Shown here piece after piece: positions 3,312 through 26,503 of a stretch of DNA of 64,000 nucleotides (positions are counted from its first letter, which is position 1; the number at the start of each line of letters is the position of its first letter). Under the pieces are notes generated by a model. The model had not been told where the DNA came from, made no database searches, and saw only the letters and a list, made by a program, of their open reading frames with translations. Source of the stretch: Candidatus Levyibacteriota bacterium (GTDB lineage: Bacteria; Patescibacteriota; Microgenomatia; Levybacterales; UBA12049); the NCBI GenBank assembly GCA_041906785.1, contig JAYRIM010000023.1, positions 129,985-193,984 of the forward strand. The letters run 5' to 3'. The position numbers and the translations under genes were made by a program.

Positions 3312-3581
3312 GTGTACAATAAATATATGTTTAAACAACCATGGTTTCGTTTACATAAATGGAAAACTGGTTGGGTACCTATTACATGGCAGGGATGGAT
3401 ACTGACTCTCTTATTTATCGGTCTCATCATATACAACTTTTTCCGCATAGATGAAACTTCTCACTCAGTATCTGATACGTTAATTAACTTTATTCCGCAA
3501 ACAGTAGTATTCGCTGGATTATTTAGCGTTTTTTGCTATTTTAAATCGGAACGACCTTCTGGAGAAGAAATGTTAAAATAA
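3312..3581 (+). CDS. small hypothetical membrane protein
   Basis: 89 aa with two hydrophobic helices (ILTLLFIGLIIYNFF and VVFAGLFSVFCYF). Confidence 0.45.
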   Translation: MYNKYMFKQPWFRLHKWKTGWVPITWQGWILTLLFIGLIIYNFFRIDETSHSVSDTLINFIPQTVVFAGLFSVFCYFKSERPSGEEMLK

Positions 3582-3614
3582 AAGAGTCAAAGCTGCAAAG
3601 AGTCAGAGAGTCAA
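3582..3614. repeat. left arm of an imperfect 33-nt inverted repeat flanking the four-helix-bundle gene
   Basis: aagagtcaaagctgcaaagagtcagagagtcaa matches the reverse complement of 3983-4016 at the ends (agagtcaaag ... agagagtcaa). Confidence 0.6.
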
Positions 3615-3617
3615 TTT

Positions 3618-3986
3618 ATGATAGAAAATCATAAAGGATATCATAAACTTATTATTTGGCAAAAAGGTAAACAGTTTATGAAAGTTTTATATTTATTGAC
3701 AGAGAATTATCCTAAACATGAGATTTTCGGACTACAATCTCAAATTAGAAGAGCTGTTGTGTCGTTCCTTCTTAATATCGTTGAAGGTCATAAAAGAAAA
3801 TCTACGAAAGAATTCCTACAATTTCTCAATATTGCAGAGGCATCACTTGTAGAAGTTGAAGCATGTTTAGAGATATCATTCGAATTAAGTTATATAACTG
3901 AGAGGGAGTATAGTCAGCTTGAAGAACAAAGACGCGAACTCGCCAGAATTATGCGAAGTTTTGTTAAAAGTCTTAATAAGCGTTGA
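3618..3986 (+). CDS. four-helix-bundle protein (23S rRNA intervening-sequence protein family, TIGR02436/PF05635-like)
   Basis: 122 aa. The sequence LIIWQKGKQFMKVLYLLTENYPKHEIFGLQSQIRRAVVSFLLNIVEGHKRKSTKEFLQFLNIAEASLVEVEACLEIS fits the family pattern closely. Confidence 0.75.
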   Translation: MIENHKGYHKLIIWQKGKQFMKVLYLLTENYPKHEIFGLQSQIRRAVVSFLLNIVEGHKRKSTKEFLQFLNIAEASLVEVEACLEISFELSYITEREYSQLEEQRRELARIMRSFVKSLNKR

Positions 3987-4016
3987 CTCTCTGCTACTCT
4001 GACTCTTTGACTCTCT
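3983..4016. repeat. right arm of the inverted repeat flanking the four-helix-bundle gene
   Basis: ttgactctctgctactctgactctttgactctc; its reverse complement gagagtcaaagagtcagagtagcagagagtcaa pairs with 3582-3614. Confidence 0.6.
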
Positions 4017-4017
4017 T

Positions 4018-4677
4018 ATGTATATTGTTACATTCTTGATTGAATTATTAGTACTATTTCTTTTATCTAAGCAAGTTACACAACACATTTCTTCACTCCT
4101 ACACAAATTAACGAAAAATAGAAAAGTTACAGTCTATTTAATTGCTTTTTTCTTCCTACCAGGCACTTTTATTCATGAACTTGCTCATTTTCTCATGGCG
4201 AAAATACTTTTCGTTCCTGTAGGGTCATTTTCTCTCAAACCTGAAGCAATTGGTCATGATATTCGCCTAGGAAAAGTTATGATCGCAAAGACAGATTTTT
4301 TCAGACGTCTTCTTATCGGCGCTGCGCCTTTTATCTTAGGTGTCTACCTAATTCTTTTTATCGTTTCAATCATCCAACAAAATCAGCTGTGGAATAACAT
4401 GTATATACTTCTTATATGCGGCGCTCTTATTTTCCAAATCGGCAACACAATGTTTTCAAGTAAAAAAGATATGAAAGGTGCTATCGAACTTATCTGTATT
4501 GTTTTGTTTCTTCTACTTTTTCTCTATCTCATGGGATTCCGTATAGCTGTTACTGACCAAACAATGGACTTTCTAAACTCTATTTTCCAAAAAGCATCTA
4601 TTTTTCTTCTACCGCCCGTTATCATAGATATTTTTCTTCTTGGGCTTTTTAAGGTTTTAGTTAAACCGACAAATTAA
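4018..4677 (+). CDS. polytopic membrane protein with an HExxH motif (putative intramembrane zinc metalloprotease-like)
   Basis: 219 aa with at least 5 hydrophobic helices. HELAH lies within a predicted helix (PGTFIHELAHFLMAKILFVP). The family assignment is tentative. Confidence 0.5.
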   Translation: MYIVTFLIELLVLFLLSKQVTQHISSLLHKLTKNRKVTVYLIAFFFLPGTFIHELAHFLMAKILFVPVGSFSLKPEAIGHDIRLGKVMIAKTDFFRRLLIGAAPFILGVYLILFIVSIIQQNQLWNNMYILLICGALIFQIGNTMFSSKKDMKGAIELICIVLFLLLFLYLMGFRIAVTDQTMDFLNSIFQKASIFLLPPVIIDIFLLGLFKVLVKPTN

Positions 4678-5198: not shown

Positions 5199-5804
5199 AT
5201 GCGACGTATGCCAAAAAAAGTAGCCTATTGTACCCTTGATCCTGAATTCCCTGAAAAGGCATACATGATTTTTCTTTTTATTCTTCATAATGATCAGATA
5301 GTTGGAACACTCCCCCTAGATGCTATCTATGATGATACAGACCATGCTGCAGATGGAGTAAAACAAATTATCGAACAGTTGGAATCTTCACAAAAACCAG
5401 TAACTGTTCCTCATGAATGTATTCTTATACCAATAACGAAATATTCACTGTTTCCTTTAAAAAAGGAATACTGGAAAAAACCATCTATTTCATATAATGA
5501 ACAGACACGAATCATATCGTTTCGTCCGGTTTTGAATAATCCTTCATTATTCGCTCTTCTAGTTACTCCATATTCCTACGATGATACTGTTAAAAAATGG
5601 TATCTACATGCTGCTATGCCTTTAGCAAATGAGAAGGATGTAAAACCTGTAGAACGGTTTATGCAAGTTAGTGACTACGTGGTAGAACCCCGTGCGAAAT
5701 TTGCAGCAATTTATACCATAGGAGAAAAAATGAGGTTTAACTGGAATACGAAGGAGGTAAAAACTTTCGAGAGGCATCAAAAAGAATCTGAAGTCGACAA
5801 CTAA
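5199..5804 (+). CDS. hypothetical protein
   Basis: 201-aa ORF with no recognisable domain. Confidence 0.45.
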   Translation: MRRMPKKVAYCTLDPEFPEKAYMIFLFILHNDQIVGTLPLDAIYDDTDHAADGVKQIIEQLESSQKPVTVPHECILIPITKYSLFPLKKEYWKKPSISYNEQTRIISFRPVLNNPSLFALLVTPYSYDDTVKKWYLHAAMPLANEKDVKPVERFMQVSDYVVEPRAKFAAIYTIGEKMRFNWNTKEVKTFERHQKESEVDN

Positions 5805-5976
5805 TAATAATTTAGAGTTAAATTTAAGAAATTAAAAGTGTAAAGTTGAAAATTAAAAATAAAAGTGAAAAGATATAAAATTTTTGATTACTGTATACTA
5901 CAACTTTTGACTTTTGACTTTTCATTTCTAACTTTTGGATCTTGAATAAATTTATGCTAAAATTGAATGCGTTATT

Positions 5977-13563: not shown

Positions 13564-14031
13564 TTAACGCTTTGGAGATTGCTTTCTTCGACGTGCTTTT
13601 CCACCAGTTCCAACTTTTCGGCGTTCTCTTACCCGGTCATCACGAGTGAGCAAACCTTTTTTCTTAAGAAGTGGACGATATTCTTCAGGTTCTAAAGCTG
13701 CTAAAGCTCGAGAAATACCTGCTACTACAGCCTCCAGTTGCCCCTCTTTTCCTCCGCCTTCTACACGAATAGTAAAAGCATATTTATTCTGTGCGTTAAC
13801 AACCCGTAATGGCTCACTATAGACTCTTCGCATAACTTCACTTGAGAAGTATTCTGCTATCGGTTTCTCATTTACGAATAACTCACCTTTTTTAATAGGT
13901 TGTTCGTTCCACATCGCATCAGTTTTTACCGCTGTGAGAAGTCTAACTCGCGCGATAGCTTGTTTTCTTCTGCCAACTGCAAATATATAATCTTTTTTAA
14001 CCTGTTTTGTCTGTTTTACTTGTTCTGCCAT
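13564..14031 (-). CDS. rpsI: 30S ribosomal protein S9
   Basis: C-terminus ...GGKARRRKQSPKR and conserved S9 core; its position after rplM is the canonical order. Confidence 0.9.
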   Translation of the reverse strand: MAEQVKQTKQVKKDYIFAVGRRKQAIARVRLLTAVKTDAMWNEQPIKKGELFVNEKPIAEYFSSEVMRRVYSEPLRVVNAQNKYAFTIRVEGGGKEGQLEAVVAGISRALAALEPEEYRPLLKKKGLLTRDDRVRERRKVGTGGKARRRKQSPKR

Positions 14032-14040
14032 ATTTAAATA

Positions 14041-14110
14041 TTAGCGCTTAGGGATTAGGTGCTAGCGTATAGAGAAATTACTAAACGCTATATGCTAATT
14101 AACTAGACGC
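14041..14110. repeat. about 65-nt intergenic repeat element, copy A (inverted relative to copy B at 27161-27226)
   Basis: ttagcgcttagggattag...ctagcgtatag...actaaacgctatatgctaatt matches, in reverse complement, ...ctaaacgctagatgctaatccctaagcgct at 27190-27226. Confidence 0.65.
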
Positions 14111-14530
14111 TGTTTTGAATTTATCTCCGTATATATGATCTTCTCCTGGAAAAATAAATAAACGTTTCATCATACTTGCACCCATCTTATTATCTGGTAA
14201 CATACCTTTTACAGCATGACGAATTACTTCTTCTGGCCTACGAGCACGTAATTCCCGAAGAGTCTCTGATGTAAATCCTCCAGGATAGCCGGAATGACGA
14301 ACATATGTCTTTTTTTCTTCTTTTTTCCCTGTCACTGCAACTTCTTTTGCATTTATAACAACGACATAGTCTCCACAATCAAGATTACGTACAAAATACG
14401 GTTTACTTTTCCCCATGAGTAATTGCGCAATTTCAGTAGAAAAACGACCCAATGTTTTTCCTTTTGCATCGCGTAAATGCCATTCCCTCTTAATCATATC
14501 TTGTTTTGTTGAAACTGTAGCTCCGTTCAT
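14099..14530 (-). CDS. rplM: 50S ribosomal protein L13
   Basis: 143 aa; conserved L13 sequence (WHLRDAKGKTLGR...). Confidence 0.9.
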   Translation of the reverse strand: MNGATVSTKQDMIKREWHLRDAKGKTLGRFSTEIAQLLMGKSKPYFVRNLDCGDYVVVINAKEVAVTGKKEEKKTYVRHSGYPGGFTSETLRELRARRPEEVIRHAVKGMLPDNKMGASMMKRLFIFPGEDHIYGDKFKTASS

Positions 14531-15054
14531 GCTTTTTTCTCCTTACGTTTCGTCTCTTTCTTTGTTTCTTTCTCCAATTTTTTATTTGCTTTTTTCTCTT
14601 CTTTCTTATTGTCTTTTTTGTTTGCTATCACTGTTGATTCCACAATATCGGTTTTTTTATTTTCCTTTTTTACTTTTTCATTTTTATTTTTTATTACTTG
14701 GCTACGCTCAACCCATTCTAAAATAACAACAGTCGCATCGTCTCCAAATCTTTTACCAAGTCTGATAATTCGAGTATAACCGCCAGGTCTATTCGCGAAA
14801 CGAGGTGCTATATCAATAATCATTCGTTTTACTGCATCCTCATGTAAATAAGGAAGTAAAAGCGGTGTAGCTGCTATACCCTTTATCTTCGCTTTAGTAA
14901 CAAGTTTTTCTACAGCTCCTTTAACGGCTTTCGCTTTCTGTTCAGTTGTCTCTATTCTCTCTTGTAAAACCAATGATGTCATTAACCCTTTAAATAGAGC
15001 TTTTCTTTCATTAGCATCTCGCTTAAATTGTCTTCCAAATACGTTTTTTTTCAT
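14527..15054 (-). CDS. rplQ: 50S ribosomal protein L17 with a Lys-rich C-terminal extension
   Basis: L17 core (GLMTSLVLQERIETT) plus a K-rich tail of about 50 aa (KKENKKTD...KKEEKKANKKLEKETKKETKRKEKKA). Confidence 0.9.
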   Translation of the reverse strand: MKKNVFGRQFKRDANERKALFKGLMTSLVLQERIETTEQKAKAVKGAVEKLVTKAKIKGIAATPLLLPYLHEDAVKRMIIDIAPRFANRPGGYTRIIRLGKRFGDDATVVILEWVERSQVIKNKNEKVKKENKKTDIVESTVIANKKDNKKEEKKANKKLEKETKKETKRKEKKA

Positions 15055-15060
15055 AAAATA

Positions 15061-15152
15061 AAAAGATATTAATAAATTAAGAAATAAAGATATTAAGTGA
15101 AAGCAAAGGGTTTGTTCTTAATATCTCAATATCCCAATATCTTAATATCTTT
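15061..15152. repeat. nested AT-rich palindromes filling the rpoA-rplQ intergenic region
   Basis: aaagatattaag (15086-15097) pairs with cttaatatct (15117-15126) and cttaatatcttt (15141-15152). An extra gatattaa copy lies at 15063-15072. Confidence 0.55.
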
Positions 15153-15154
15153 TA

Positions 15155-16084
15155 TTATGCTGGCAGGCTAATTCCTTTTGCTTGAAGTTTTTCTTCTATA
15201 ACTGCAAGTGATTTACCGCCCATATTACGCATACTTACAAGATCTTTCCGTGGTGTGTTAACGAGCTCTTCTACTGTCTCTATACCACCGTTTCGAAGTG
15301 AGTTATAGATTCTTGTAGGTAAATCTAATTCATCTATTGTTAATTTTAATGTCTCTGGCGCAATAGTAGATGTTTTATCTGTACTTTCACCATCTGTTAT
15401 AGTTGGAGCTTTTGGACTATAAACCATCAAAAATGACTCTGCGAGGATTCTTGATGCGTCATCTAACGTTTTTCGAGGGTTTATAGTACCATTTGTCCAA
15501 ATCTTCATAACCAACTTATCGAGATTGGTTTGACGTCCGACACGTGTCGCTTCTACTGAATAGGTAACTCTTTTTATGGGAGTAAATACAGCGTCAGTAG
15601 GAATAACCTCTAAGCTTACTGCTTTACGATCTTCAGCAAGAGAATAACCTAATCCTCGCTCTATTGTTAGCTCCATATCAAGCTTTGCCTTTGGACCATT
15701 CAAAGTACCAAGATAAAGGTCTTTATTGACAACTTCTACTCCATCAGTTTCTTCAAAATCTGCTGCTGTTACTGTATTATCTCCCTTTACAGAAAGTTTT
15801 AATGTGGCTGATTCTTTAGAATCAGCAAGCTTTATACATAACTGTTTAACATTAAGAAGGAGATCAATAACATTTTCTTTTAAACCGGGAAGAGTAGAGA
15901 AACGGTGCTTGACACCACTTATGCGTACAGAAGTGACTGATGCACCTGGGATTGAAGCATAAAGAACCCGGCGAAGCGCATTTCCCATCGTATAACCAAA
16001 CCCTGGTTCCAATGGTTCGATAACGAATTCTCCGTATTCTTCTGTTAATGTTGTCTCTTTTACTTTAAAATCTAATTCAACCAT
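15155..16084 (-). CDS. rpoA: DNA-directed RNA polymerase alpha subunit
   Basis: 309 aa; N-terminal domain (MVELDFKVKETTLTEEYGEFVIEPLEPGFGYT) and C-terminal domain (DELDLPTRIYNSL). Confidence 0.9.
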   Translation of the reverse strand: MVELDFKVKETTLTEEYGEFVIEPLEPGFGYTMGNALRRVLYASIPGASVTSVRISGVKHRFSTLPGLKENVIDLLLNVKQLCIKLADSKESATLKLSVKGDNTVTAADFEETDGVEVVNKDLYLGTLNGPKAKLDMELTIERGLGYSLAEDRKAVSLEVIPTDAVFTPIKRVTYSVEATRVGRQTNLDKLVMKIWTNGTINPRKTLDDASRILAESFLMVYSPKAPTITDGESTDKTSTIAPETLKLTIDELDLPTRIYNSLRNGGIETVEELVNTPRKDLVSMRNMGGKSLAVIEEKLQAKGISLPA

Positions 16085-16186
16085 AGTGTAAAATTGATGC
16101 GAAAAGGTAGATTGAACATTGTCCTTAATCTACAATTTCCAATACTTAGCTTCTAGCATCTCAGGCTCAACCTGACTAGTATACCA

Positions 16187-16789
16187 TTAACGAGAGTAAT
16201 ATTCAATAATCTGTCTCGTATTAAATGGTAGCTCGATATCTTCTCGTTTTGGTTTACGTACTAACTTCCCTTGATTACCTTCCTTAGAAAGAAAAGGAGC
16301 GACTTGAACATTTTCATTCATGAGTTTCATGATATCGGGATTTTTCTGCATGGCGTCAGAAATACCTATAATGTCATTTTCCTTCACTTGATATGAAGGA
16401 ATTGTCATCTTTTCGCCATTCACAGTTACATGTCCATGGGTAACCATTTGACGAGACATGAAACGAGTTTTCGCAAAACCCAACCGATAAACAACATTAT
16501 CTAATCTTGTTTCAAGAAGCGATAATAAGAGTTCTTCTGTATCACCTTTTTGTTTCGCTACTCTGTCAACAAGTTGTTTAAATTGTTTTTCTAATACTCC
16601 ATAAATTGCTTTTGCTTTTTGTTTTTCTCGAAGCTGCAATCCAAACTCTGATAATCTTCGCTTTCGTTTCTTTCCGTGAACACCAGGTGGAACGGTAATA
16701 CGGCGGAGAAGACTTGCAGAAGTCTTATCAAGGATATTTACTCCTTCTCGTCGTGCGATTCTATGTTTTGGTCCTGTATATCTTGCCAT
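16187..16789 (-). CDS. rpsD: 30S ribosomal protein S4
   Basis: 200 aa; [16 protein letters not shown] start, as in S4. Confidence 0.9.
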   Translation of the reverse strand: MARYTGPKHRIARREGVNILDKTSASLLRRITVPPGVHGKKRKRRLSEFGLQLREKQKAKAIYGVLEKQFKQLVDRVAKQKGDTEELLLSLLETRLDNVVYRLGFAKTRFMSRQMVTHGHVTVNGEKMTIPSYQVKENDIIGISDAMQKNPDIMKLMNENVQVAPFLSKEGNQGKLVRKPKREDIELPFNTRQIIEYYSR

Positions 16790-17187
16790 TAAACTCTTCT
16801 CCTTTTTTGTGCTCTTGGTCCATTATGTGGAATCGGTGTTATATCTGTAATTGACGCGATACTTAAACCTCCGGCCTTTACACCTCGGAGAGCTGATTCC
16901 CGGCCGGCTCCCGGACCTTTAATATAAACATCTACTGTTTTTAAGCCATTTGTAACTGCACGTTTAGCAGCATCTTCCACTGCTAATGAAGCTGCATACG
17001 GCGTAGATTTTCTTGTTCCTTTAAATCCCTTTGCACCTGAAGAACTCCATGATATTGTATCTCCTTTATCGTTTGTAATGGTAACGAGGGTATTATTAAA
17101 TGTAGCTGTTATAAAAACACTTCCATGAACTCCTACTGTAAGAGTACTCTTTTTCTTAGTTTGTTTTGTCGCTGCTTTTGTTGCCAT
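16789..17187 (-). CDS. rpsK: 30S ribosomal protein S11
   Basis: 132 aa; conserved S11 block ([17 protein letters not shown]). Confidence 0.9.
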
Positions 17188-17190
17188 ATG

Positions 17191-17607
17191 TTACTTTGCT
17201 GGTGTATCTTTTGTTTTTTGAGCTGCTTCAATCTTTGCTACAACTTCCTTCTTTACTGCTCCGATTGTTACACGCTTTCCACGCTTAGTACGTGCATTTG
17301 ATCGAGTTCTTTGTCCTCGCGAAGGAAGATTTCGACTATGTCGGACGCCTCTATACGCACCAATTTCTTTTAAGCGTCTGATATTCTCATGTACTTCTGC
17401 ACGGAGATCTCCTTCAATTTTTATATGCTCCAATGCATCTGTAATACGCTTGACCTCAGCTTCTGTAAGCGTCTTTGCTCTTTTAGAAGCATCTATTTCT
17501 GCTTTTTTAAGAATACCCCTGACATTGCTTCTTCCTATACCGTATAAGTATGTAAGAGCGATGTCAATCCTTTTTTCGTCTGGTATATTTGCGCCTAATA
17601 CTCTCAT
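17191..17607 (-). CDS. rpsM: 30S ribosomal protein S13
   Basis: 138 aa; MRVLGANIPDEKRIDIALTYLYGIGRSN start, as in S13. Confidence 0.9.
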   Translation of the reverse strand: MRVLGANIPDEKRIDIALTYLYGIGRSNVRGILKKAEIDASKRAKTLTEAEVKRITDALEHIKIEGDLRAEVHENIRRLKEIGAYRGVRHSRNLPSRGQRTRSNARTKRGKRVTIGAVKKEVVAKIEAAQKTKDTPAK

Positions 17608-17755
17608 TGTATGTTACAGATTAATCCTAATTATTTTGCTATTTTAGCATATTCGGATTAATTCGGATGCGAGAATATCTTCCAAACGTATTCTCCTCAT
17701 ACGAATTACTACGAATTAGAAGAACAAGAATGCATAATTCGGATGCATTCGTAGT

Positions 17756-17869
17756 TCAACCTTGTCTTTGTTTATGTTTTGCTGTTTTGCACACGATAAA
17801 CACAACACCTTTTCGTCGGATAATTTTACAATTTTTGCATCGAGGTTTTACGCTTGCTTGAACTTTCAT
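17756..17869 (-). CDS. rpmJ: 50S ribosomal protein L36 (found by hand; below the ORF-track size cut-off)
   Basis: The minus strand encodes [37 protein letters not shown], which has the L36 zinc-ribbon signature and sits in the canonical position between infA and rpsM. Confidence 0.85.
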
Positions 17870-17870
17870 A

Positions 17871-18089
17871 TTATCTTGTTCTCTTAATAATTCTTCCTTT
17901 AGTCGGATCGTACTTTGTCATTTCGATCCTAACTCTATCACCAGGTAAGATACGAATAAAATTCATTCTCATTTTACCTGATAGATGACATAATACTATT
18001 GTTCCATCCTCTAGCTCAACACGAAAAAGTGTATTGGGCAATGCTTCTTTTACAATTCCATCTACTTCAATTGAGCCCTGATGAGCCAT
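17871..18089 (-). CDS. infA: translation initiation factor IF-1
   Basis: The conserved IF-1 S1-like domain starts at [29 protein letters not shown]. The tracked ORF extends to 18125 through an upstream in-frame ATG that is probably not used. Confidence 0.8.
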
Positions 18090-18282
18090 ATGACACGAAA
18101 CACACGAATAAAACTTCCCATTCACTTGCTATTTCTTGTTTCGAGAGCGAGGTGATCGTAGAAGACTCAATCTCAACTCGCGAATGTCGCGAAACGCGTT
18201 TGACGCGTCGAACAGGCAGAATAAGAAAGCATATTCGTGTCTTACGGGATATTATAGCAAACCAGCCTGGAAAGAGCAAACG

Positions 18283-19086
18283 TTATTTTGTCAAAATTAG
18301 TGGTCCCTCCTTCATAATCGCCAGGGATCTCTCGAAAACAGCAGAAAGACTTCCATCTGCTGTTTTTATCGTCCAATCATCAGTTCCGGCATAAACTACA
18401 TCCGGTCCTCCCATGTTATAGATCACTTCAATTGCTATGGTCATTCCTTCTCGAAGAAGAGGAGTTTTAGCTATTGGTTGGTCTAAAAACCCTGGTACTT
18501 CAGGTTCTTCATGGAGCTCTTTTCCAACTCCATGTCCGATAAGTGTTCTCACAATGGAATAGTGACCTTCATCTTCAACGATATCTTGTATTGCTTTTGA
18601 GATATGCCCAATACGATTACCTAATACTGCCTGCGCAATACCAGCATCTAATGCTTTCTTACCAATTTCTAAAAACTTTTCCTTTTCTCCAAAACTTTTA
18701 ACTTTTTCGGCCAGAGGCTGATACGCCTTAGGCGGAGACTTTTGACTTTCAACTATGGCTGTTTCGGCCATATCCGTGTGATAACCTTTATAAAAAACTC
18801 CACAATCAATACAGACAACATCTCCGTCTTTAAAGGTATATGAAGATGGTATTCCGTGAACTACTACATCATTTGTACACGCACAAATCGTGTGATGGTA
18901 TCCATCAACCTTCTTAAACCCTGGTTCCCCACCTCTTTCTCGTATCAATTTCTCTGCTAACGTATCTATTTCAAGCTCTGAAATTCCAGGCTTAACCTGT
19001 TCCATAACTTTCCGTAACACATCAGCGAGAATGGCCCCACCTTGTTTCATAATCTTAATCTCTTCAGATGTTTTAATATCAATCAT
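18283..19086 (-). CDS. map: methionine aminopeptidase type I
   Basis: 267 aa; pita-bread fold motifs with the metal ligands (DGYHHT..., ...GHGVGKELHEEP). Confidence 0.9.
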   Translation of the reverse strand: MIDIKTSEEIKIMKQGGAILADVLRKVMEQVKPGISELEIDTLAEKLIRERGGEPGFKKVDGYHHTICACTNDVVVHGIPSSYTFKDGDVVCIDCGVFYKGYHTDMAETAIVESQKSPPKAYQPLAEKVKSFGEKEKFLEIGKKALDAGIAQAVLGNRIGHISKAIQDIVEDEGHYSIVRTLIGHGVGKELHEEPEVPGFLDQPIAKTPLLREGMTIAIEVIYNMGGPDVVYAGTDDWTIKTADGSLSAVFERSLAIMKEGPLILTK

Positions 19087-19778
19087 ATAAGGTTTCTTTT
19101 CTGCAACTCTGTTATTATTATACCTAATGTCTGACGTTCTGTTAGATCTGAATTATCAATTATAAAGTACCCAAATTTCTCAGGTTCGGTTGTTAATGGT
19201 GAAAGCTTACGAGTTGAATCCCTATAATCTCTTTCTTTTATTTTCTGTACAACTTGAGTAAAACTGAAATCCTCACCTTTTTGTCTATACTGCATAAATC
19301 TTCTTTGTGCTCTGACGTCTAAACGAGCTGTCAAATATATTTTCATAGGTGAATGAGGAAAAACGGTTGTTCCCATATCTCGCCCTTCTGCTACAACAAT
19401 TTTCCCCTGTTCAATATATGTATCCGCAAGCTTTCTTTGTAATTCTGCAAGCTTTTCTCGGACTTTTCGTATAACGCCAAGACGAGATGCCATAGCTGCA
19501 ACTTCACTATTCCGGATAGAATCTGTAACAATTTTCCCATTTAGTAGTAATTCTCTCCCTTCTATATCTATCGTTATATCTGGTAGATTTTTGTTTACTG
19601 TTTCTTCGTCATCAATCTGTAAGCCTTTATCTAAAAAGTACAAGGCAACACAACGAAACATTGCTCCTGAATCTACATAAATCCCTTTTACTGCAGAAGC
19701 TAACATCGGCGCCAATGTGCCTTTCCCCGAACCTACTGGACCATCTATAGCTATGACAAAACCTTTTTTTCTTATCAT
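19083..19778 (-). CDS. cmk: cytidylate kinase
   Basis: IAIDGPVGSGKGT P-loop, YVDSGAMFR and YLTARLDVRAQRR motifs. Confidence 0.8.
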   Translation of the reverse strand: MIRKKGFVIAIDGPVGSGKGTLAPMLASAVKGIYVDSGAMFRCVALYFLDKGLQIDDEETVNKNLPDITIDIEGRELLLNGKIVTDSIRNSEVAAMASRLGVIRKVREKLAELQRKLADTYIEQGKIVVAEGRDMGTTVFPHSPMKIYLTARLDVRAQRRFMQYRQKGEDFSFTQVVQKIKERDYRDSTRKLSPLTTEPEKFGYFIIDNSDLTERQTLGIIITELQKRNLI

Positions 19779-19843
19779 ATAAAATGTACTAACTACATGA
19801 CTCTATAATGATTTTGAAAAACAATTGTGTGACATAAGAAGCA

Positions 19844-20416
19844 TTACACATGGAGTTTACTCATTATTTCTTTATGGATCTTCTCTATTGGCTGTTCTCC
19901 ATTTATTTCAATTAATAACCGTTTTCGGTGATAGTACTGTAAAACAGGTTGTGTATATTTATGAAACAGTTCTATACGATGACGGACAGCTGCTAAAGTT
20001 TCATCATCTCGTGCCTCTGTTTCATTCTCTTCACGGTATGATAACCGCCAAAGGGCTTCTCTATCAGAGACTTTTAAATATACAACATCGTCAATTTTTT
20101 CTGTAAATGCTTCAGTTTGTTTTATAGTTCGAGGAAATCCATCAAGAATATACCCATTTTTATATTCCGGACGCTGTAAATATTCAGTTACGATACGTAA
20201 TGTTTGGGTATCAGGGACCAATGTTCCTGCGTGAAGCAATTCCTTAATGTACCGACCAAGCTTCGTGTGTTCTTTAGCAATATCACGGAAAATATGACCT
20301 GTCGAGAGATAAGGAACATGAAGTTTTTTTGATAAAAGATTACCTTGCGTTGATTTTCCGGAACCTTGGATTCCAATAATAATTATTCTCGCTGGTGTAC
20401 GTATAGCATCAGTCAT
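19844..20416 (-). CDS. adk: adenylate kinase (short-lid form)
   Basis: IIIIGIQGSGKSTQG P-loop, GYILDGFPRT, and a short LID without Cys ligands. Confidence 0.85.
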   Translation of the reverse strand: MTDAIRTPARIIIIGIQGSGKSTQGNLLSKKLHVPYLSTGHIFRDIAKEHTKLGRYIKELLHAGTLVPDTQTLRIVTEYLQRPEYKNGYILDGFPRTIKQTEAFTEKIDDVVYLKVSDREALWRLSYREENETEARDDETLAAVRHRIELFHKYTQPVLQYYHRKRLLIEINGEQPIEKIHKEIMSKLHV

Positions 20417-20421
20417 GAGTA

Positions 20422-21711
20422 TTATCTTCTCAAGAATTCTTCATAATTGCGACTAACGAGACTAGCTTCTATCGATTTAAACATTTCTAGGACAACACTA
20501 ACCACGATCAGTACACCTGTACCTCCTAGTAATAAGGTTTGGGAATTAGTAATTGTTTGGGCTATCGAAGGGAAAACGGCAATAACACCAAGGAATAATG
20601 CACCTACTAAAGTAATTCTATTCAAAATATAATTCAGATATTTCGCTGTCTGTGAACCAGGACGGATACCTGGAATAAACCCGCCATATTTTTGAATTTC
20701 TTCAGCGATTTTAGTTGGATTAAATACGACAGCTGTATAGAAATAGGTAAATGCTACTACTAACGTGAAGTAGATAGCATTATAAGGAATTCCTTTTGGT
20801 GCAAACCAGAGCGTTAATGTTTGGCCGATACTGCTCAAGTTTTTATCAGGAGAGGTGACTAAATAATTCCCGAGAAGTGAAGGAATGAGAACAAGAGAAA
20901 CTGCAAAGATAATTGGAATGACACCTGCTTGATTAAGACGAAGAGGCAAATGTGTCGATTGCCCACCTAACATTTTACTTCCCCGTACACGTTTCGCATA
21001 ATACACAGTAATTTGGCGTGTGGCCTCATTTACTACAATGACTGAGGCAATCATGGCAACTCCAAGTAACGCATATATAACAATATTGACAGCATTTTCA
21101 GCTGTAACTGTTGATGCTGTCTGGCCAAGCAATACCGGCAATCTACCTACAATTCCTGCGAATATAAGCACAGACGTACCATTTCCCACCCCTCGCTCTG
21201 TAATCAATTCTCCAAGCCAAACAAGTAACATCGTACCTGCCACCATCGTGACGATAAATGATAATAAACCGAGTGGAGGAAGAGTCGTGATAATACCCTG
21301 ACTACGAAGTAATGCATACATGCCGATAGCTTGAAGCGCAGCTAATGGAACGGTAATGAAACGAGTGTATTGGTTAATCTTTCGTCTTCCTTGCTCACCT
21401 TCTTTAGACAACTCCTCAAGTTTAGGAAAAATCATAGTCAAAAGTTGTAAAATAATCGAGGCATTAATGTATGGATTTAACCCCAATGCCATTATAGAAA
21501 AGTTGGCCAGTGTTCCGCCTGAGAATATATCCAATAACCCAAGGAATTGGTTCTGGCTAAATAAATTACGGAGCTGGGCTACATTTACTCCTGCAACGGG
21601 AACGTATGCGAATAATCTAAAAAAGAAAAATATCATTACAGTAAACAGAATTTTTTTCCGTATATCAGGAGTTTTTAAACTGTTGCGAAGAGTGCGAATA
21701 GCGTCATTCAT
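20422..21711 (-). CDS. secY: preprotein translocase subunit SecY
   Basis: 429 aa with 10 TM helices and conserved SecY blocks ([26 protein letters not shown]). Confidence 0.9.
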
Positions 21712-21760
21712 GGATTAAAAATACGAACGATATAAGCTATCTAGAAACTGCTTACATCGA

Positions 21761-22204
21761 TTATACTGTCGTTTCGATAGTTCCGCCTGCTTTTTTAATT
21801 TTATCAGCAGCAGATTGTGAAACTGGAATTCTTATAGTGTATGCAGCTGTTACTTCACCATGACCTAATAGTTTAACTCCTCTGGTACGAGCTTCGTCTG
21901 AAACAATGCGTTGTTTAATCAAAACCTCTATATCAACAACACCTTTTGCAGATAAACGAGCCAAATCATCTAAATTAATGACCACAGGTTTTTGCTGAAG
22001 GGATTTATTACGATCTTTACCTCTAAGAAAAGGCATACGTTTTACGAGAGGAAGCGCTCCTCCTTCAAAGCGGAGAGGAATATCATTTCGTGCTTTTTGA
22101 CCCTTTGTACCCCTTCCTGCGGTCTTTCCACGGCCTGAACCATGGCCTAACCCAAGACGTTTCTTTCTTTGAGATACTACTGATGGTAAAAAATGTAATT
22201 CCAT
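21761..22204 (-). CDS. rplO: 50S ribosomal protein L15
   Basis: 147 aa; G-rich N-terminus (GHGSGRGKTAGRGTKGQKAR). Confidence 0.9.
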   Translation of the reverse strand: MELHFLPSVVSQRKKRLGLGHGSGRGKTAGRGTKGQKARNDIPLRFEGGALPLVKRMPFLRGKDRNKSLQQKPVVINLDDLARLSAKGVVDIEVLIKQRIVSDEARTRGVKLLGHGEVTAAYTIRIPVSQSAADKIKKAGGTIETTV

Positions 22205-22719
22205 TATTTATTTTTCTCCTTTTTCGTATTTCTCATGCGCTCATACCGCTGTGAAACCTGACGAAGAGCTTCGATTGTAGCATAAACATTATTGGCTTGA
22301 TTTTTTGTACCGAGAACTTTACTTGAAATATTTTGAATACCTGCCGCCGCGACAACACTTCGTACTGCACCGCCGGCAATAATTCCTGAACCTGGAGGTG
22401 CTGGTTTCAACATCACTTTTGCCGCACCTACTTTCACATCTACTCGTAATGGGATGGTTCCGTTAATAATAGGGACATAGAGCATATGTTTCCTAGCTAA
22501 CGTGATACCTTTTCGGATTGCAGATGAAACATCCATCGCTTTCCCCAATCCGATTCCTACTCTTCCATTTTTATCTCCTACAACAGCTAAAGCTGCAAAT
22601 CCCATTTTATTTCCACCTTTCGTCTTTTTAGAAACACGATTAATATTCACAACCTGTTCAGAAAAACCTGATTGGATATCTGTTTCTTTTTGCATAAGTT
22701 TACTATCTCGATTATTCAT
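22204..22719 (-). CDS. rpsE: 30S ribosomal protein S5
   Basis: 171 aa. Its stop overlaps the rplO start (TAATG), leaving no room for rpmD. Confidence 0.9.
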   Translation of the reverse strand: MNNRDSKLMQKETDIQSGFSEQVVNINRVSKKTKGGNKMGFAALAVVGDKNGRVGIGLGKAMDVSSAIRKGITLARKHMLYVPIINGTIPLRVDVKVGAAKVMLKPAPPGSGIIAGGAVRSVVAAAGIQNISSKVLGTKNQANNVYATIEALRQVSQRYERMRNTKKEKNK

Positions 22720-22731
22720 ATGTGTTACAAA

Positions 22732-23073
22732 TTAGAATTGTAATCCTCCTTCTCTTGCTCCTTCTGCGAGAGCTTTTATTTTACCATGATACGCATAACT
22801 TCCTTTATCAAAAACTACTGCTGTAACTTTTTTTGCTTTAGCAAGTTCTGCTAATTTTAAACCTAGCTTTTTTGCTTTCTCAACACCTGTTCCTGTCTTC
22901 TCTGAAAGAACCTTATCCATAACACTTACCAGTGTTTTCCCAGCCTTATCATCAATGATTTGTGCATATAAATGCTTATTTGACCTGAACACCGATAAAC
23001 GAGCTCTATCAGAAACGATACGTATATTCTTTCGAATCCTTGTTTGACGTTGTTTTTTTCTATTATTATTCAT
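22732..23073 (-). CDS. rplR: 50S ribosomal protein L18
   Basis: 113 aa; conserved L18 sequence (RLSVFRSNKHLYAQIIDD). Confidence 0.9.
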   Translation of the reverse strand: MNNNRKKQRQTRIRKNIRIVSDRARLSVFRSNKHLYAQIIDDKAGKTLVSVMDKVLSEKTGTGVEKAKKLGLKLAELAKAKKVTAVVFDKGSYAYHGKIKALAEGAREGGLQF

Positions 23074-23083
23074 AATTTTTAAT

Positions 23084-23635
23084 TTACTTGGTTCCTACAG
23101 CCTTCGCTGCTTTTCCTACTTTTCGTTTAACTTGTTCTCCTTTATATCTAATACCTTTTCCTTTATATGGCTCTGGTGGTTTAATGGCTCGAATTTTTGC
23201 AGCTGTTTCTCCGACTAACATTTTATCTGCTCCAGAAACGGTAATAATATTTTCATCAACTGCAATCTTAACCGTCGCATGAGGTTTGAATTTTACAGGA
23301 TGAGAAAATCCAAGTGATAACACAAGATCATTCCCTTGAACTTGGGCTCTATACCCGACACCCTGTAACTCAAGTTTCTTTTCAAAACCTGTATCTACAC
23401 CTTTAATCATATTTGCAAGTTGTGCTCGAGCTAAACCATATAGTGCTCTAACTTGACGATCATTTGTCTCCTTTTGTGAAAGTACAACTTTTCCATCTAC
23501 TACACTAGCATTAATACCAGCTGGTAAGGTAAATAAAGCCTCACCTTTCGTACCGGTAACTTTTACCATATTACCCTCAATAGCTACTTGCACGCTTGAT
23601 TTTACTTCTATTGGTGTCTTTCCTATTTTTGACAT
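23084..23635 (-). CDS. rplF: 50S ribosomal protein L6
   Basis: 183 aa; MSKIGKTPIEV start, as in L6. Confidence 0.9.
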   Translation of the reverse strand: MSKIGKTPIEVKSSVQVAIEGNMVKVTGTKGEALFTLPAGINASVVDGKVVLSQKETNDRQVRALYGLARAQLANMIKGVDTGFEKKLELQGVGYRAQVQGNDLVLSLGFSHPVKFKPHATVKIAVDENIITVSGADKMLVGETAAKIRAIKPPEPYKGKGIRYKGEQVKRKVGKAAKAVGTK

Positions 23636-23637
23636 AC

Positions 23638-24027
23638 TTACCAGATCTTAAAAAGAAGTTCTCCACCCACTCCTTTTTTAAGAGCCTCCTTTCCTGTCAT
23701 AATTCCGTTACTCGTCGAAATAATTGCAGTTAAAGATCGCTCTTTATCTTGTTTTATATCTGTATTATCTACATAAACACGAACAGAAGGCTTTGAAATA
23801 ATCCTGATATCATGCATGGCTGGCCGTCGGTTCTCATATCTTAACTGTGCAACAAGTGCTTTTTTTCCATCTGTGTCCTGTTCAACAACGCCGGCCAAAT
23901 AACCTTCCTTTACCAATACTTGTGCTATGGCCTTATTAATTTTTGAAAAAGGCATAGTGACCTGTTTTTGTCTAGCTAGATATGCATTTTTAATTCGAAC
24001 GATAAAATCGCCTACTTGATAATTCAT
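23638..24027 (-). CDS. rpsH: 30S ribosomal protein S8
   Basis: 129 aa; conserved S8 sequence. Confidence 0.9.
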   Translation of the reverse strand: MNYQVGDFIVRIKNAYLARQKQVTMPFSKINKAIAQVLVKEGYLAGVVEQDTDGKKALVAQLRYENRRPAMHDIRIISKPSVRVYVDNTDIKQDKERSLTAIISTSNGIMTGKEALKKGVGGELLFKIW

Positions 24028-24035
24028 AGTTCAGT

Positions 24036-24221
24036 TTACCAGGTCGATTTGATTACTCCTGGTAATTCTCCTTTCATTGCAAGTTCGCGGAAACACATTC
24101 TGCACAATCCGAATCTTCGGAAGTAAGCACGTGATCTTCCACAAATACCACACCGGTTTACATTCCGGACTGCATATTTTTGTTTTTTCTTAAATTTAAC
24201 AATATCTGATGTTTTAGCCAT
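24036..24221 (-). CDS. rpsZ: 30S ribosomal protein S14, zinc-binding type Z
   Basis: 61 aa starting [30 protein letters not shown]...CRMCFRE (a C4 zinc knuckle). The tracked ORF has a 5-aa upstream extension to 24236. Confidence 0.85.
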
Positions 24222-24283
24222 AATAAAATTACGCACAAATTATACCATTCCTCATAGCGAATGTCGATCTACTTTATAGAAAG

Positions 24284-24823
24284 CTACTTCTGAAATGGTA
24301 TCCCAAGTGCTTTTAATAAGGTTATACCTCGTTCGTTTGTTTTTGCATTCGTGACAAAAATAACCTCTAACCCCTGTAATCTATCTACAGTACCCAAATC
24401 AATCTCTGGAAAAACAGAATACTCTCTGAAACCTAATGCATAATTTCCTCTTCCATCAAAACTGTCTTTACTAACACCATGGAAATCTTTAACACGTGGT
24501 AAAACGATTTTCGTCAAACGCTCCATGAAATCATACATTTTTTTACCTCGCAAGGTCACTGTTACACCTATTGGATCTCCTTGTCGAAGCTTAAATGATG
24601 CGATAGATTTCTTAGCACGTGCGACTTTCGGCCGTTGTCCAGCAATAGTTGTAACAACAGTTACCATTTTATCAATAAGCTTTTTATCACTTGTCGCATC
24701 TTTTACTCCCATGTTAATCACAATTTTTTCAAGCCGCGGAGTAGCCATAACATTTGTAATATGCAAATCTTTCTGTAATTGTGGAATAATTTCTTGTTTA
24801 TATTTTTTCTGTAATTGTGTCAT
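24284..24823 (-). CDS. rplE: 50S ribosomal protein L5
   Basis: 179 aa; conserved L5 sequence. Confidence 0.9.
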   Translation of the reverse strand: MTQLQKKYKQEIIPQLQKDLHITNVMATPRLEKIVINMGVKDATSDKKLIDKMVTVVTTIAGQRPKVARAKKSIASFKLRQGDPIGVTVTLRGKKMYDFMERLTKIVLPRVKDFHGVSKDSFDGRGNYALGFREYSVFPEIDLGTVDRLQGLEVIFVTNAKTNERGITLLKALGIPFQK

Positions 24824-24826
24824 ATG

Positions 24827-25144
24827 TTACTTTCCTTCACCTATCTCTGCATTACATTTCCTGCAAATTCGTACTTTTTTACCATCTTTCAGAAGGTATC
24901 CTACACGTGTCTGCTTTTTGCACTTAGGGCAGACAAGTGCAACTTGAGAAATAGGCAGAGGTTTTGTAATTGTTACGATTTCAGATTGCTGACCTTGGGC
25001 TCGTGCTTTTACATGTCTTTTATACTGGTTTACTCCAGGCACTAATACACGCATCTCTTTTTCAAAAACTTTCTCAATTTTGCCAGTTTTTCCGGCATCT
25101 TTTCCTAATAAAATTTTTACCTCATCACCTTTTAGTAATTTCAT
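24827..25144 (-). CDS. rplX: 50S ribosomal protein L24 with a C-terminal C4 zinc-ribbon extension
   Basis: KOW domain (MKLLKGDEVKILLGKDAGKTGKI) followed by CPKCKK...RICRKCN. Confidence 0.85.
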   Translation of the reverse strand: MKLLKGDEVKILLGKDAGKTGKIEKVFEKEMRVLVPGVNQYKRHVKARAQGQQSEIVTITKPLPISQVALVCPKCKKQTRVGYLLKDGKKVRICRKCNAEIGEGK

Positions 25145-25147
25145 AGT

Positions 25148-25522
25148 TTATACAACCTCCACCGCCATACTTGCTATTTTCGTAAATCCTTTATCACGCA
25201 CTTCTCGAGGAATTGGTCCAAAAATACGTGTACCGCGAGGATTTTTATCTTTTTCATTGTCAATGATAACCGCTGCATTATCTGAAAATCTAACATATGA
25301 CCCATCTTTACGTCGGTATTCTTTTCGTGTTCTGACTACGACTGCTTTTACAAGTTCGCTATCTTTCACTTGACCATGAGGTGTAGCTACTTTAACAACG
25401 CAATTGACAATATCACCAATATGGCCAAACTTACGTTTCGATCCGCCAAATATATGCACTACAGAGAGTGCTTTTGCTCCTGAGTTGTCCGCAACTGATA
25501 ATATCGTTCGTAACTGTATCAT
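25148..25522 (-). CDS. rplN: 50S ribosomal protein L14
   Basis: 124 aa; [17 protein letters not shown] start, as in L14. Confidence 0.9.
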
Positions 25523-25812
25523 ACTTTTTCCTCCTTAACCTTTTTTTCTTTAACTGTTTTCTCAGCTTTTCCGGCTTTTACTTGATCTTTTCCTGAAATA
25601 ACATGATGAATTGTTTTTGATAATGGACGAGTTTCTGCAATCGAAACTGTATCACCAACTTGGACATCATGCCCGTTTACAGCAACTCTATATTTCTTAC
25701 TGCGTGTTAATAATTTTTTATATTTAGGATGTGGAATTTTTCTGGTTACTTCTACCACAACCGCTTGTGTCATTTTTGTTGATATTACCACTCCTTTAAG
25801 CGTTTTTGCCAT
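25519..25812 (-). CDS. rpsQ: 30S ribosomal protein S17
   Basis: 97 aa; conserved S17 sequence. Confidence 0.9.
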
Positions 25813-26014
25813 ATGATGCCAACTCCTTTCCTCTTAGGACTGTTTTCACACGAGCAATTACTGTTCGTAATGATCGCAACGTTCTAACATTTTTAATTTT
25901 TCCCCGAGAATGATCAAGACGAGCAGATGCTAATTCTTTTTGTGTATCCATAAGCATTTTCTTTAATTCCTCAATTGATTGTTCATGTAATTCTACTTTT
26001 TTTTCTTTCTTCAT
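25796..26014 (-). CDS. rpmC: 50S ribosomal protein L29
   Basis: 72 aa; conserved L29 sequence (LRTVIARVKTVL). Confidence 0.85.
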   Translation of the reverse strand: MKKEKKVELHEQSIEELKKMLMDTQKELASARLDHSRGKIKNVRTLRSLRTVIARVKTVLRGKELASYGKNA

Positions 26015-26018
26015 AGTG

Positions 26019-26432
26019 TTATTGTGCTTTCTTTTGTATTAACTTTGACCGAATTGGCAACTTATGCGCTGCACGTTTTAATGCTTCAACTGCAATGTCT
26101 GGAGTTACGCCACCAATTTCGAACATGATGCGTCCAGGTCGTACAGTCGCTACATATTCATGAACATCTCCTTTTCCTCCACCCATACGCACCTCTGGTG
26201 GTTTTTTCGTAATTGGTTTATCTGGAAAAATACGAATCCAGACTCTTCCACCTCGTTGCGTGTAGTGGGTAATAGCACGACGAGCAGATTCTATCTGTCT
26301 ACTTGAAATCCAGCCTGCATCTTCAGCGCTTAAACCATATTCCCCATACGCCAGTTCGACACCTCGGCTCGCATCGCCTCGCATCGTACCGCGCATTTGT
26401 TTTCTATATTTTACTCTTCTTGGTAATAACAT
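26019..26432 (-). CDS. rplP: 50S ribosomal protein L16
   Basis: The conserved L16 N-terminus [15 protein letters not shown] puts the start at 26432. The tracked ORF runs on to 26480 through the intergenic hairpin. Confidence 0.85.
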
Positions 26433-26456
26433 ATTTTGAATTGAGATTTTAGAGTG

Positions 26457-26492
26457 GAGAATTGAGAATTTTAGTCTCAACTCTCAATTCTC
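26457..26492. repeat. perfect 11-bp inverted repeat (hairpin) in the rpsC-rplP spacer
   Basis: gagaattgaga - 14 nt - tctcaattctc. Flanking ttgagatttt / tcatttctcaatttt extend an imperfect palindrome across 26433-26503. Confidence 0.6.
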
Positions 26493-26503
26493 ATTTCTCA
26501 ATT

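Follow-up and report, generated by a model that had tools for sequence, protein, structure and literature searches.

Palindromic heptamer-array hairpins at two ribosomal-protein gene junctions of a Levybacteria genome belong to a widespread and sporadic repeat family

Two ribosomal-protein gene junctions, rplM–rpsI and rplV–rpsC, in a 64,000-nt stretch of Candidatus Levyibacteriota DNA (contig JAYRIM010000023.1, positions 129,985–193,984; hereafter the window) are each occupied by a palindromic hairpin built from phased seven-nucleotide words. These hairpins, elements A and B, represent old copies of one widespread palindrome family, referred to here as the TAGCG family, and the window has no other copy of it. 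The 7-nt word periodicity is the defining feature of the family and was absent from an initial annotation of this DNA, which had described A as one copy of a dispersed, hairpin-bearing repeat. We favour, with a probability of about 0.7, the reading that A and B are copies, lacking an open reading frame (ORF), of a widespread selfish or near-neutral family of TAG-heptamer palindromes that is copied, prone to slippage and co-transcribed as a double-stranded RNA (dsRNA) stem.

The two elements and their arms are placed as follows (window coordinates):

14042–14111, minus strand: element A, a palindromic heptamer-array hairpin occupying the rplM–rpsI junction (from sequence, fold and phased arrays).
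14081–14111, minus strand: 5′ arm of the A transcript, with the last three rplM codons, the TAA stop (14099–14101) and a shared 19-mer (14081–14099).
14042–14072, minus strand: 3′ arm of the A transcript, including the 16-mer CTAATCCCTAAGCGCT (14043–14058) and ending 11 nt short of the rpsI ATG (14031).
27156–27226, minus strand: element B, of the same family as A, occupying the rplV–rpsC junction (from sequence, fold and phased arrays).
27211–27226, minus strand: outer part of the 5′ arm of the B transcript, encoding the four C-terminal residues of rplV (A L R D) followed by its TAG stop (27211–27213).

NCBIfam identifies the flanking genes, all on the minus strand, as rpsI (13564–14031), rplM (14099–14530), rpsC (26504–27148) and rplV (27211–27606), and also identifies rplQ, rpoA and rpsS on that strand. 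The intergenic gap is 67 nt between rplM and rpsI, and 62 nt between rplV and rpsC. Element A is transcribed as AGCGUC UAGUUAAU UAGCAUA UAGCGUU UAG, a loop, and CUAUACG CUAGCAC CUAAUCC CUAAGCG CU; it is identical in an independently assembled Logan contig (L001). Element B is transcribed as AGCGCU UAGGGAU UAGCAUC UAGCGUU UAG, a loop, and CUAAACG CUAAUUAU CUAGUCG CUAAAU. The stop codons of both upstream genes fall within the 5′ arms and are supplied by the elements themselves, in agreement with the earlier remark that each copy overlaps the last codons of the gene before it.

The relationship between A and B is a mosaic of common words. The 16-mer CTAATCCCTAAGCGCT has two exact copies in the window, one in A on the minus strand and one at 27211–27226 on the plus strand (chance expectation 0.30 matches with up to three mismatches). 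A 19-mer, CTAAACGCTA[T/G]ATGCTAAT (that is, CTAAACGCTANATGCTAAT), recurs at 14081–14099 and 27197–27215, both on the plus strand (0.11 expected with up to three mismatches), and the word TAGCGT[A/T]TAG is present in both elements, again on the same strand. The inner 5′ arms, ATTAGCAT[A/C]TAGCGTTTAGTA, match directly over 21 nt (95%), and the 3′ arm of A is 87% complementary to the 5′ arm of B over 30 nt (inverted pair I7). Since both elements are themselves imperfectly palindromic, the alignment of A to B is about as good in one orientation as in the other (local scores of 51 and 55). The inner arm is thus shared directly and the outer 16-mer in inverted form, which is not a simple inversion.

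These results revise the initial annotation in part. The common segments that it listed are present in both copies, with the low chance expectations given above (0.11–0.30 with three mismatches), and its own caveat of AT-biased, low-complexity likeness is not upheld, as the shared words and phased arrays are far beyond chance. The proposed sharing in reverse complement holds for the 16-mer and fails for the 19-mer and TAGCGT.TAG; the claim that the copies are mutually inverted is abandoned in favour of the mosaic. RNA folding, one of the checks that it had suggested, returns hairpins on the transcribed strand at both sites: −21.7 kcal/mol for A (z = −3.5, pairing 14111 to 14043) and −23.1 kcal/mol for B (z = −3.3, pairing 27221 to 27162), with imperfect stems of ~20–22 bp each. 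The internal hairpin of about 10 bp that it had assigned to each copy is a perfect 10 bp in B; in A it is split into 6 + 3 bp by one mismatch.

Both elements follow the plan (TAGNNNN)x4, loop, (NNNNCTA)x4, with four phased words per arm. In A, the TAG array spans 14042–14072 and the CTA array 14081–14105; in B, the phased arrays lie at 27156–27187 and 27197–27220. Runs of at least four TAG or CTA at 7–8-nt spacing are found only at A and B in the 64 kb, giving four arrays against 0.12 in shuffled sequences. Among the metagenome copies listed, the usual form of the family is (TAGCGNN) x3–6, loop, (NNCGCTA) x3–6. Over 70 family members, TAG–TAG spacing is 7 nt in 199 of ~270 intervals and CTA–CTA spacing is 7 nt in 207 intervals. 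Across family members, any of the four bases may precede TAG, and none is preferred. With a TAG at 7-nt intervals on either strand, no reading frame stays open beyond ~21 nt; all six frames carry stops in 66 of the 70 members (12.5 expected). The same periodicity runs through the operon spacers of Levybacteria, where lag 7 is the top self-match in 176 of 294 spacers versus 26 of 274 coding controls, and the spacers of the window hold several word families (TAGCG, AUUGAGA, GAUAUUAA, GAGUCAAA, UUUGAGA and ACUUUUG arrays).

We picked 80 related operon loci via SecY, from metagenome-assembled genomes labelled Candidatus Levybacteria/Levyibacteriota or Patescibacteria (titles of ‘uncultured Gammaproteobacteria’ among them are apparent placeholder labels), located all operon genes and measured every junction. 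Spacer lengths are bimodal, at ~0–10 nt or 40–150 nt, and the two junctions of interest hold either ~0–17 nt or a heptamer-word hairpin of 40–110 nt. The long spacers are short-word hairpins whose words vary by lineage, and their occurrence is sporadic (rplV–rpsC, 21 of 67 loci; rplM–rpsI, 15 of 58; rpsS–rplV, 18 of 68; rpmJ–rpsM, 22 of 67). The best SecY relative, L002 (87% identical), has no element at rplM–rpsI; its rplV–rpsC junction bears a hairpin of other words (AAGUCCUAAGU...) with the loop UAUUGA, as in B. Searched with CTAAACGCTA (one mismatch allowed) and with A and B, at least 15 further loci proved to contain clusters of TAGCG/CGCTA words. TAGCG hairpins are seen at infA–rpmJ (L008, L033, L049), rpsS–rplV (L015, L031, L039, L066, L075), map–infA (L045), rpmJ–rpsM (L015), rplE–rpsZ (L028), rplM–rpsI (L015) and rplV–rpsC (L065).

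Comparing the same junctions in relatives, as the initial annotation had advised, exposes sites that are filled in one genome and empty in another at 88% identity, besides the lack of element A in the closest relative. The operons of L033 and L039 share that identity over ~17 kb, and a 96%-identical 72-nt TAGCG element sits at infA–rpmJ in the former and at rpsS–rplV in the latter, the other's site being short and empty in each. L015 holds three TAGCG copies, two of which have a nested 35-nt double hairpin in common. At these two sites (3965–4081 and 17189–17290) we noted the same nested insert, GCCACGTCAAACGTGGCAGTCGCGTTTGAC.CGAC, made of two small GC-rich hairpins: an element within an element. 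Over all loci, spacer pairs with an alignment score of at least 40 make up 7.2% of pairs within a genome (different junctions) versus 1.0% between genomes (odds ratio 7.7, p = 3.5e-25). The rplM–rpsI spacers of L010 and L011 differ solely by two extra TAAGTCC units, and a difference of whole units points to replication slippage. As it comes and goes between close relatives, the family resembles small selfish repeats and not regulatory signals that are conserved.

The family reaches well beyond ribosomal-protein operons. A metagenome scan with the pattern TAGCGTNTAGN{5,35}ACTAAACGCTA matched at least 120 contigs; the window's own pattern, AGCGCTTAGGGATTAGNNNNTAGCGTWTAG, had no exact match in the genome or metagenome contig collections, which do not include the source genome. 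Ribosomal-protein genes are carried by merely 12 of the 120 contigs among the matches listed, so the range of the family is wider than the ribosomal superoperon in which it was originally placed. SecY identity to the window drops to 48% on a 56% G+C contig with a TAGCG hairpin; the family therefore extends past Levybacteria. Eighty-five of the copies listed could be classified by their neighbours, with 70 between co-directional, 8 between convergent and 7 between divergent genes. Metagenome copies span the stop-to-start gap, the 5′ arm lying over the upstream stop and the 3′ arm ending ~0–10 nt before the ATG. In four contigs (L102, L112, L115 and L117), TAGCG hairpins start right after an apparent tRNA or tmRNA 3′ end (GGTTCGA.TCC... 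motif), which places the family at RNA-gene ends as well.

Strand polarity is absent from the TAGCG family. G–U pairs number 22 versus 23 on the two strands in Levybacteria, and 166 sense versus 149 antisense in the metagenome copies listed, of which the sense strand folds better in 34 and the antisense strand in 35. Orientation relative to transcription, using a recurrent A·A / U·U inner mismatch as polarity marker, stands at 39 to 31, with no preference. Rfam 15 gave no gathering-score match in the window, and none at E ≤ 5 over 13900–27400. A scan for promoters and terminators called neither kind of site at A or B, and no U-tract follows either element (tails AAUAUUUAAAU for A and AAAUACUAUUGAAAU for B). 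Both downstream genes, rpsI and rpsC, are without a Shine–Dalgarno sequence; many neighbouring genes have one. We considered leaderless expression of rpsI and rpsC from the −10-like 3′ flanks (TAATAT, TACTAT), and rejected it for poor spacing and want of a −35 box.

Two further junctions of the operon carry word-built hairpins that are not of the TAGCG type:

26439–26503, minus strand: third heptamer hairpin, at the rpsC–rplP junction, of AUUGAGA / UCUCAAU words (Tandem Repeats Finder period-7 arrays at 26438–26470 and 26475–26503; z = −4.8).
15061–15153, minus strand: hairpin of the rpoA–rplQ spacer, of 8-nt words GAUAUUAA followed by a U-rich tail (inverted pair I3; z = −6.0).

The TTG that was called mechanically as the rplP start (26480) falls within the rpsC–rplP hairpin, and an ATG lies immediately downstream of the hairpin. 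The rpoA–rplQ hairpin is terminator- or attenuator-like, of the same architectural class as A and B with a different word. A long, word-built hairpin occupies this spacer in 60 of 64 related loci, and a T-run comes after it in most of the spacers listed. In 53 of these 60 the better fold is that of the sense strand, with 239 G–U pairs in sense versus 117, and the rpoA–rplQ hairpins clearly act at the RNA level. They look like a conserved terminator or attenuator with lineage-variable words (TCTCAAA, TTCGAAA, CAGTTTT, AGATAGA, GATATTAA). More word arrays or hairpins of the window lie at rpmJ–rpsM, upstream of fusA (42320–42415), at 5816–5937, and at 3578–3614 paired with 3983–4019. An ACTTTTG array of 4.9 units (100% matches, 29680–29713) lies within the coding 5′ end of putative rplD (28951–29721, assigned on operon order alone) and resembles the intergenic array at 5903–5937.

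The last-named pair of arrays encloses a gene, in the layout of a ribosomal RNA (rRNA) intervening sequence (IVS):

3578–4019, plus strand: IVS-like cassette, a PF05635 gene (3618–3986) between inverted 8-nt-word arrays at 3578–3614 and 3983–4019 (from Pfam, inverted pair I4 and Tandem Repeats Finder).

The ORF encodes a 23S-rRNA-intervening-sequence protein (PF05635, Pfam E = 6.7e-33), a bAvd-like four-helix bundle; its homologues are annotated as ‘four helix bundle proteins’, some of them from Shapirobacteria. In the minimum-energy fold of 3570–4030, the two arrays pair and enclose the ORF (z = −4.7). The cassette sits between two protein genes: the layout is that of an rRNA IVS, but in mRNA. 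PF05635-type proteins are also the most recurrent family among 720 ORFs of the TAGCG-bearing contigs listed, with seven genes on six contigs, four of them within TAGCG arrays; word arrays or inverted repeats are present in the flanks listed for these genes. At all four homologue loci that were fetched independently (L202, L206, L210 and L214), the gene lies between co-directional neighbours, with inverted arrays flush with its start and stop codons, and arm words of the AAAGAGTCA type are common to the cassettes of the window, L202 and L214 at unrelated genomic sites. Flank complementarity reaches the 95th percentile of 1923 control ORFs in 8 of 11 IVS-protein genes (Mann–Whitney p = 3e-6); the L071 gene has an array on one side only. 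The window cassette is a candidate for the full-length form to which the hairpins without an ORF are related. Similar bracketing of an IVS-protein gene was seen in L084, L087, L163, L166 and L142. Trp-repressor-like genes with complementary flanks were set aside, having operator-type palindromes instead of bracketing arrays.

Two CAAAGT-type arrays of 36 nt each (2260–2295 and 45568–45603), both intergenic, are 86% complementary although 43 kb apart. The first has CAGAGATGCAAAG in common with the upstream arm of the L206 cassette, and the two may be solo arms. We also noted, on a groundwater contig with a TAGCG hairpin (L122, 5180–5990), an IS200-like Y1 transposase gene (5267–5929, 220 aa) between GC-rich hairpins, CCTTTCGAGGTT[C/G]AACCTCGA. 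By sequence, the arrangement is like that of repetitive extragenic palindromes (REPs) and their REP-associated tyrosine transposases (RAYTs). We rejected this protein as the RAYT of the TAGCG family, its flanking hairpin being different and GC-rich (CGAGGTTSAACCTCG). It is the only Y1 gene seen, and the window has none. No transposase-bearing relative of the family was found, and the ORF-bearing relatives seen carry only the PF05635 protein.

On the evidence above, the family spreads inside genomes through some copy process, and its arrays lengthen or shorten by whole heptamers via replication slippage. We propose that insertion at a gene end would remove a few C-terminal residues at most, a cost low enough that the elements may be tolerated even in the ribosomal-protein superoperon. 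With all six frames closed and the downstream start left intact, they should be harmless, and A and B would be selfish or nearly neutral passengers rather than conserved regulators. In the operon mRNA, the imperfect stem of ~20–22 bp would bring the upstream stop and downstream start together. There, an RNase III-type, double-strand-specific RNase would most probably cut or protect the stem, and cutting would sever the polycistronic mRNA at that point.

Several observations weigh against this proposal or qualify it. A and B are only ~75% alike and are therefore not recent copies of each other. For the family we found neither a transposase nor a terminal cleavage motif, and no target-site duplication that was clear. 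The two filled/empty pairs of L033 and L039 show just imperfect CTAAACG-like direct repeats at their borders, in flanks that are 12% diverged. Repeated gene conversion fits the copying as well as transposition does. At rplV–rpsC of L002, where the loop of B is kept, in-place word change would, from the sequence, fit as well as replacement. When all sporadic operon hairpins are pooled, the sense strand is the better folder in 135 versus 94 (p = 0.003), with 481 versus 408 G–U pairs, a weak bias that leaves room for some RNA-level selection. The stem is probably an RNase III target, by likeness to rRNA IVSs and to the stems between cistrons in the early mRNA of phage T7; the window has no rnc gene.

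The relation to the IVS-protein cassette bears on what A and B derive from, and would refine the passenger reading rather than replace it. A and B may be miniature IVSs, ORF-less derivatives of a PF05635-gene cassette with inverted word arrays. In this idea's favour are the window cassette with its arms pairing around the ORF, the recurrence of PF05635 on contigs chosen solely for TAGCG hairpins, the flush arrays of the four fetched loci with their flank complementarity, the AAAGAGTCA-type words shared by three cassettes, and the fact that the IVS has already been proposed as a mobile element, with the ORF serving mobility (PMC4990558). We nevertheless hold it tentatively. Any gene inserted in these genomes may gain heptamer arrays in its two new spacers, no nuclease or recombinase activity is known for the PF05635 protein, and the words of the window cassette (GAGTCAAA) differ from the TAGCG of A and B; sampling bias affects the TAGCG-armed cassettes, whose contigs had been chosen for their TAGCG hairpins, and the L071 copy is one-sided. 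A broader version, equally conjectural, would make the hairpins of Levybacteria and of groundwater bacteria of the candidate phyla radiation (CPR) the miniature form of an unrecognised mobile element, whose full-length version would be the PF05635 gene between inverted heptamer/octamer arrays. Such stem-bounded cassettes would insert between genes, with the rRNA IVS as one niche, RNase III as the means of excision from transcripts and S23p as their own factor.

If A and B were instead dedicated cis-regulatory RNAs, they would be selected signals that set ribosomal-protein stoichiometry through coupling, masked ribosome loading of rpsI and rpsC, or mRNA-stabilising processing. The geometry suits this, with a stem running from the upstream stop codon to 0–17 nt ahead of the start codon, as do the missing Shine–Dalgarno sequences of rpsI and rpsC (unlike many neighbours), the weak but significant sense-strand bias of the pooled hairpins, and the proposal that the Beggiatoaceae TAACTGA heptamers, upstream of starts without a ribosome-binding site, are translational regulators (PMC4679880). 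We think it rather unlikely, since the element is missing at the same junction in the closest relative and in most relatives, copies of the family also lie beside unrelated genes, behind apparent tRNA genes and where two genes converge, its members have neither G–U asymmetry nor orientation preference, and Rfam is silent even at E ≤ 5. Mobilisation by a RAYT of the IS200-like Y1 family, as for REPs and bacterial interspersed mosaic elements (BIMEs), accounts for short, imperfect, extragenic, multi-copy palindromes in both orientations, and a Y1 gene with flanking inverted hairpins does occur on a TAGCG-bearing contig; it is nonetheless improbable, given that those hairpins are CGAGGTTSAACCTCG and not TAGCG arrays, that the window has no Y1 transposase, that a heptamer-array build is unlike known REPs and that the variable base before TAG means there is no conserved GTAG foot. 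Independent local origin, by heptamer slippage and hairpin-templated repair in place with A and B converging on easy words, draws on the copy-number differences between relatives, on the change of word families at one junction with the loop retained, and on the over-representation of heptamer repeats in bacteria, ascribed to polymerase slippage (PMC4692102). The exact 16-mer and the 19-mer common to A and B, the 96%-identical 72-nt element at different junctions of 88%-identical genomes, the L015 pair with its nested 35-nt double hairpin and the 7.7-fold within-genome sharing make it improbable as well. An intrinsic terminator, an internal promoter or chance AT-rich similarity is very improbable indeed: other operon spacers are promoter-like (for example, TCGACA-17-TATAAT before rpsZ) and the rpoA–rplQ spacer has a hairpin and then a U-tract, but A and B have neither a scan-reported site nor a U-tract, and chance predicts 0.1–0.3 shared words with three mismatches and 0.12 phased arrays.

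The 7-nt periodicity links A and B to the known heptamer repeats of cyanobacteria and Beggiatoaceae. In Nostoc/Anabaena, the 7-bp units of STRR sequences (short, repetitive and repeated in tandem) form an intercistronic hairpin between hupS and hupL, for which transcript stabilisation or translational coupling has been suggested (PMC2670836). A and B resemble these in being tandem 7-bp units, intergenic, often between co-transcribed genes, hairpin-capable and drawn from several word families per genome. They differ in their host (a Levybacteria-like CPR bacterium rather than heterocystous cyanobacteria), in their TAG-phased TAGCGNN words, in the joining of two inverted arrays into a single compact palindrome of ~70 nt that takes up the space from stop to start, and in the gain/loss polymorphism and intragenomic copying documented here for the TAGCG family. 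The STRR words of heterocystous cyanobacteria, as Mazel is said to have described in 1990, are CCCCAGT, TTGGTCA or CAACAGT. A and B are STRR-like in working, yet are not members of the named cyanobacterial STRR families. The TAACTGA heptamers of marine Beggiatoaceae, some Cyanobacteria and Bacteroidetes, whose horizontal or mobile spread is suspected (MacGregor 2015, PMC4679880), likewise bear stops that close every forward frame, overlap upstream stop codons inside ribosomal-protein operons and end a few nucleotides before a downstream start that usually lacks a ribosome-binding site. Those repeats are nearly all direct and biased towards the start codon, with one indirect repeat in 170 sets, whereas TAGCG elements are inverted and palindromic, without orientation bias and of another word. 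Bacteria in general have an over-representation of heptamer repeats, for which polymerase slippage may be the cause; in Xanthomonas, some of these repeats form inverted pairs (PMC4692102).

With the REP/BIME elements of enterobacteria and pseudomonads and with MITE-like palindromes such as the Neisseria Correia elements, the family shares short, extragenic, multi-copy, imperfect palindromes that are co-transcribed, lie in either orientation and vary in presence between strains. The foot of a REP hairpin is a conserved GTAG tetranucleotide. The TAGCG family has no such foot and, compared with REPs, miniature inverted-repeat transposable elements (MITEs) and Correia elements, shows no RAYT association or clear target-site duplication; in common with MITEs it has terminal inverted repeats, the arms of A and B being inverted arrays. 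The initial annotation's REP-like or MITE-like dispersed element is thus right as to dispersal (at least 15 of 80 loci and at least 120 metagenome contigs), and, over the loci and contigs analysed, fits neither REP nor MITE in the strict sense. To our knowledge, REP and Correia elements do not have arms that are internally periodic heptamer arrays. The IVSs of 23S rRNA genes are sporadic, selfish inserts with complementary borders that form a stem, and some have an S23p/PF05635 ORF in the loop. The hairpins recall them in sporadic occurrence and bordering stem, and the window cassette has exactly their layout. Unlike IVSs, A and B are parts of mRNA flanked by protein genes instead of an rRNA helix, and they have no ORF. 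We know of no report of heptamer periodicity in IVS stems. IVSs have been described as selfish stem-loops, and a role in mobility has been proposed for their ORF (PMC4990558). Correia elements are bound by RNase III and either cut or protected by it (PMC2649163). Intrinsic terminators differ from A and B, which show no U-tract or terminator-like call, and tandem interspaced guide RNA (TIGR) arrays were rejected as a match, being incompatible with 7-nt words. In the open-access literature we came across no account of the TAGCG words, nor of any hairpins built from heptamers in CPR bacteria.

Some observations concern the operon and its relatives more generally. TATAAT boxes stand 6–9 nt before the ATG of many window genes, for example at 24239–24267 before rpsZ, and further ones lie upstream of 34292–35266, 35847–36914 and 37549–38202. 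Judged from sequence, they suggest that leaderless mRNAs may be frequent, including some from promoters internal to the superoperon (rplE–rpsZ and map–infA spacers). A second dispersed short element, ATGACCC.TTCG.C...GCTCAGGGTCATA.TGAG, unrelated to the heptamer hairpins, recurs at assorted operon junctions: after the rpoA hairpin in L017, L022, L057 and L081, at rpmC–rpsQ in L033 (6039–6081) and L039 (5207–5246), at 7494–7520 of L039, and at 7688–7715 of L066. The window also has the cytidylate kinase gene cmk (19083–19778) between adk and map in its spc-type cluster; among related loci, cmk is beside adk in 16 and beside map in 31, and adk and map are adjacent in 9.

CPR bacteria have very small genomes, and even so their most essential operon bears repeated selfish-looking palindromes exactly at its cistron boundaries. 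Since the ORFs run into the arrays, the ends of rplM and rplV and the called start of rplP are set by the elements, and in annotation the called ends of genes flanking IVS-protein genes are likewise affected. The intergenic heptamer repeats of cyanobacteria and Beggiatoaceae gain a counterpart in a distant phylum, with direct evidence of gain and loss, and the association with IVS proteins offers a link from such repeats to the IVSs of rRNA and to processing by RNase III.

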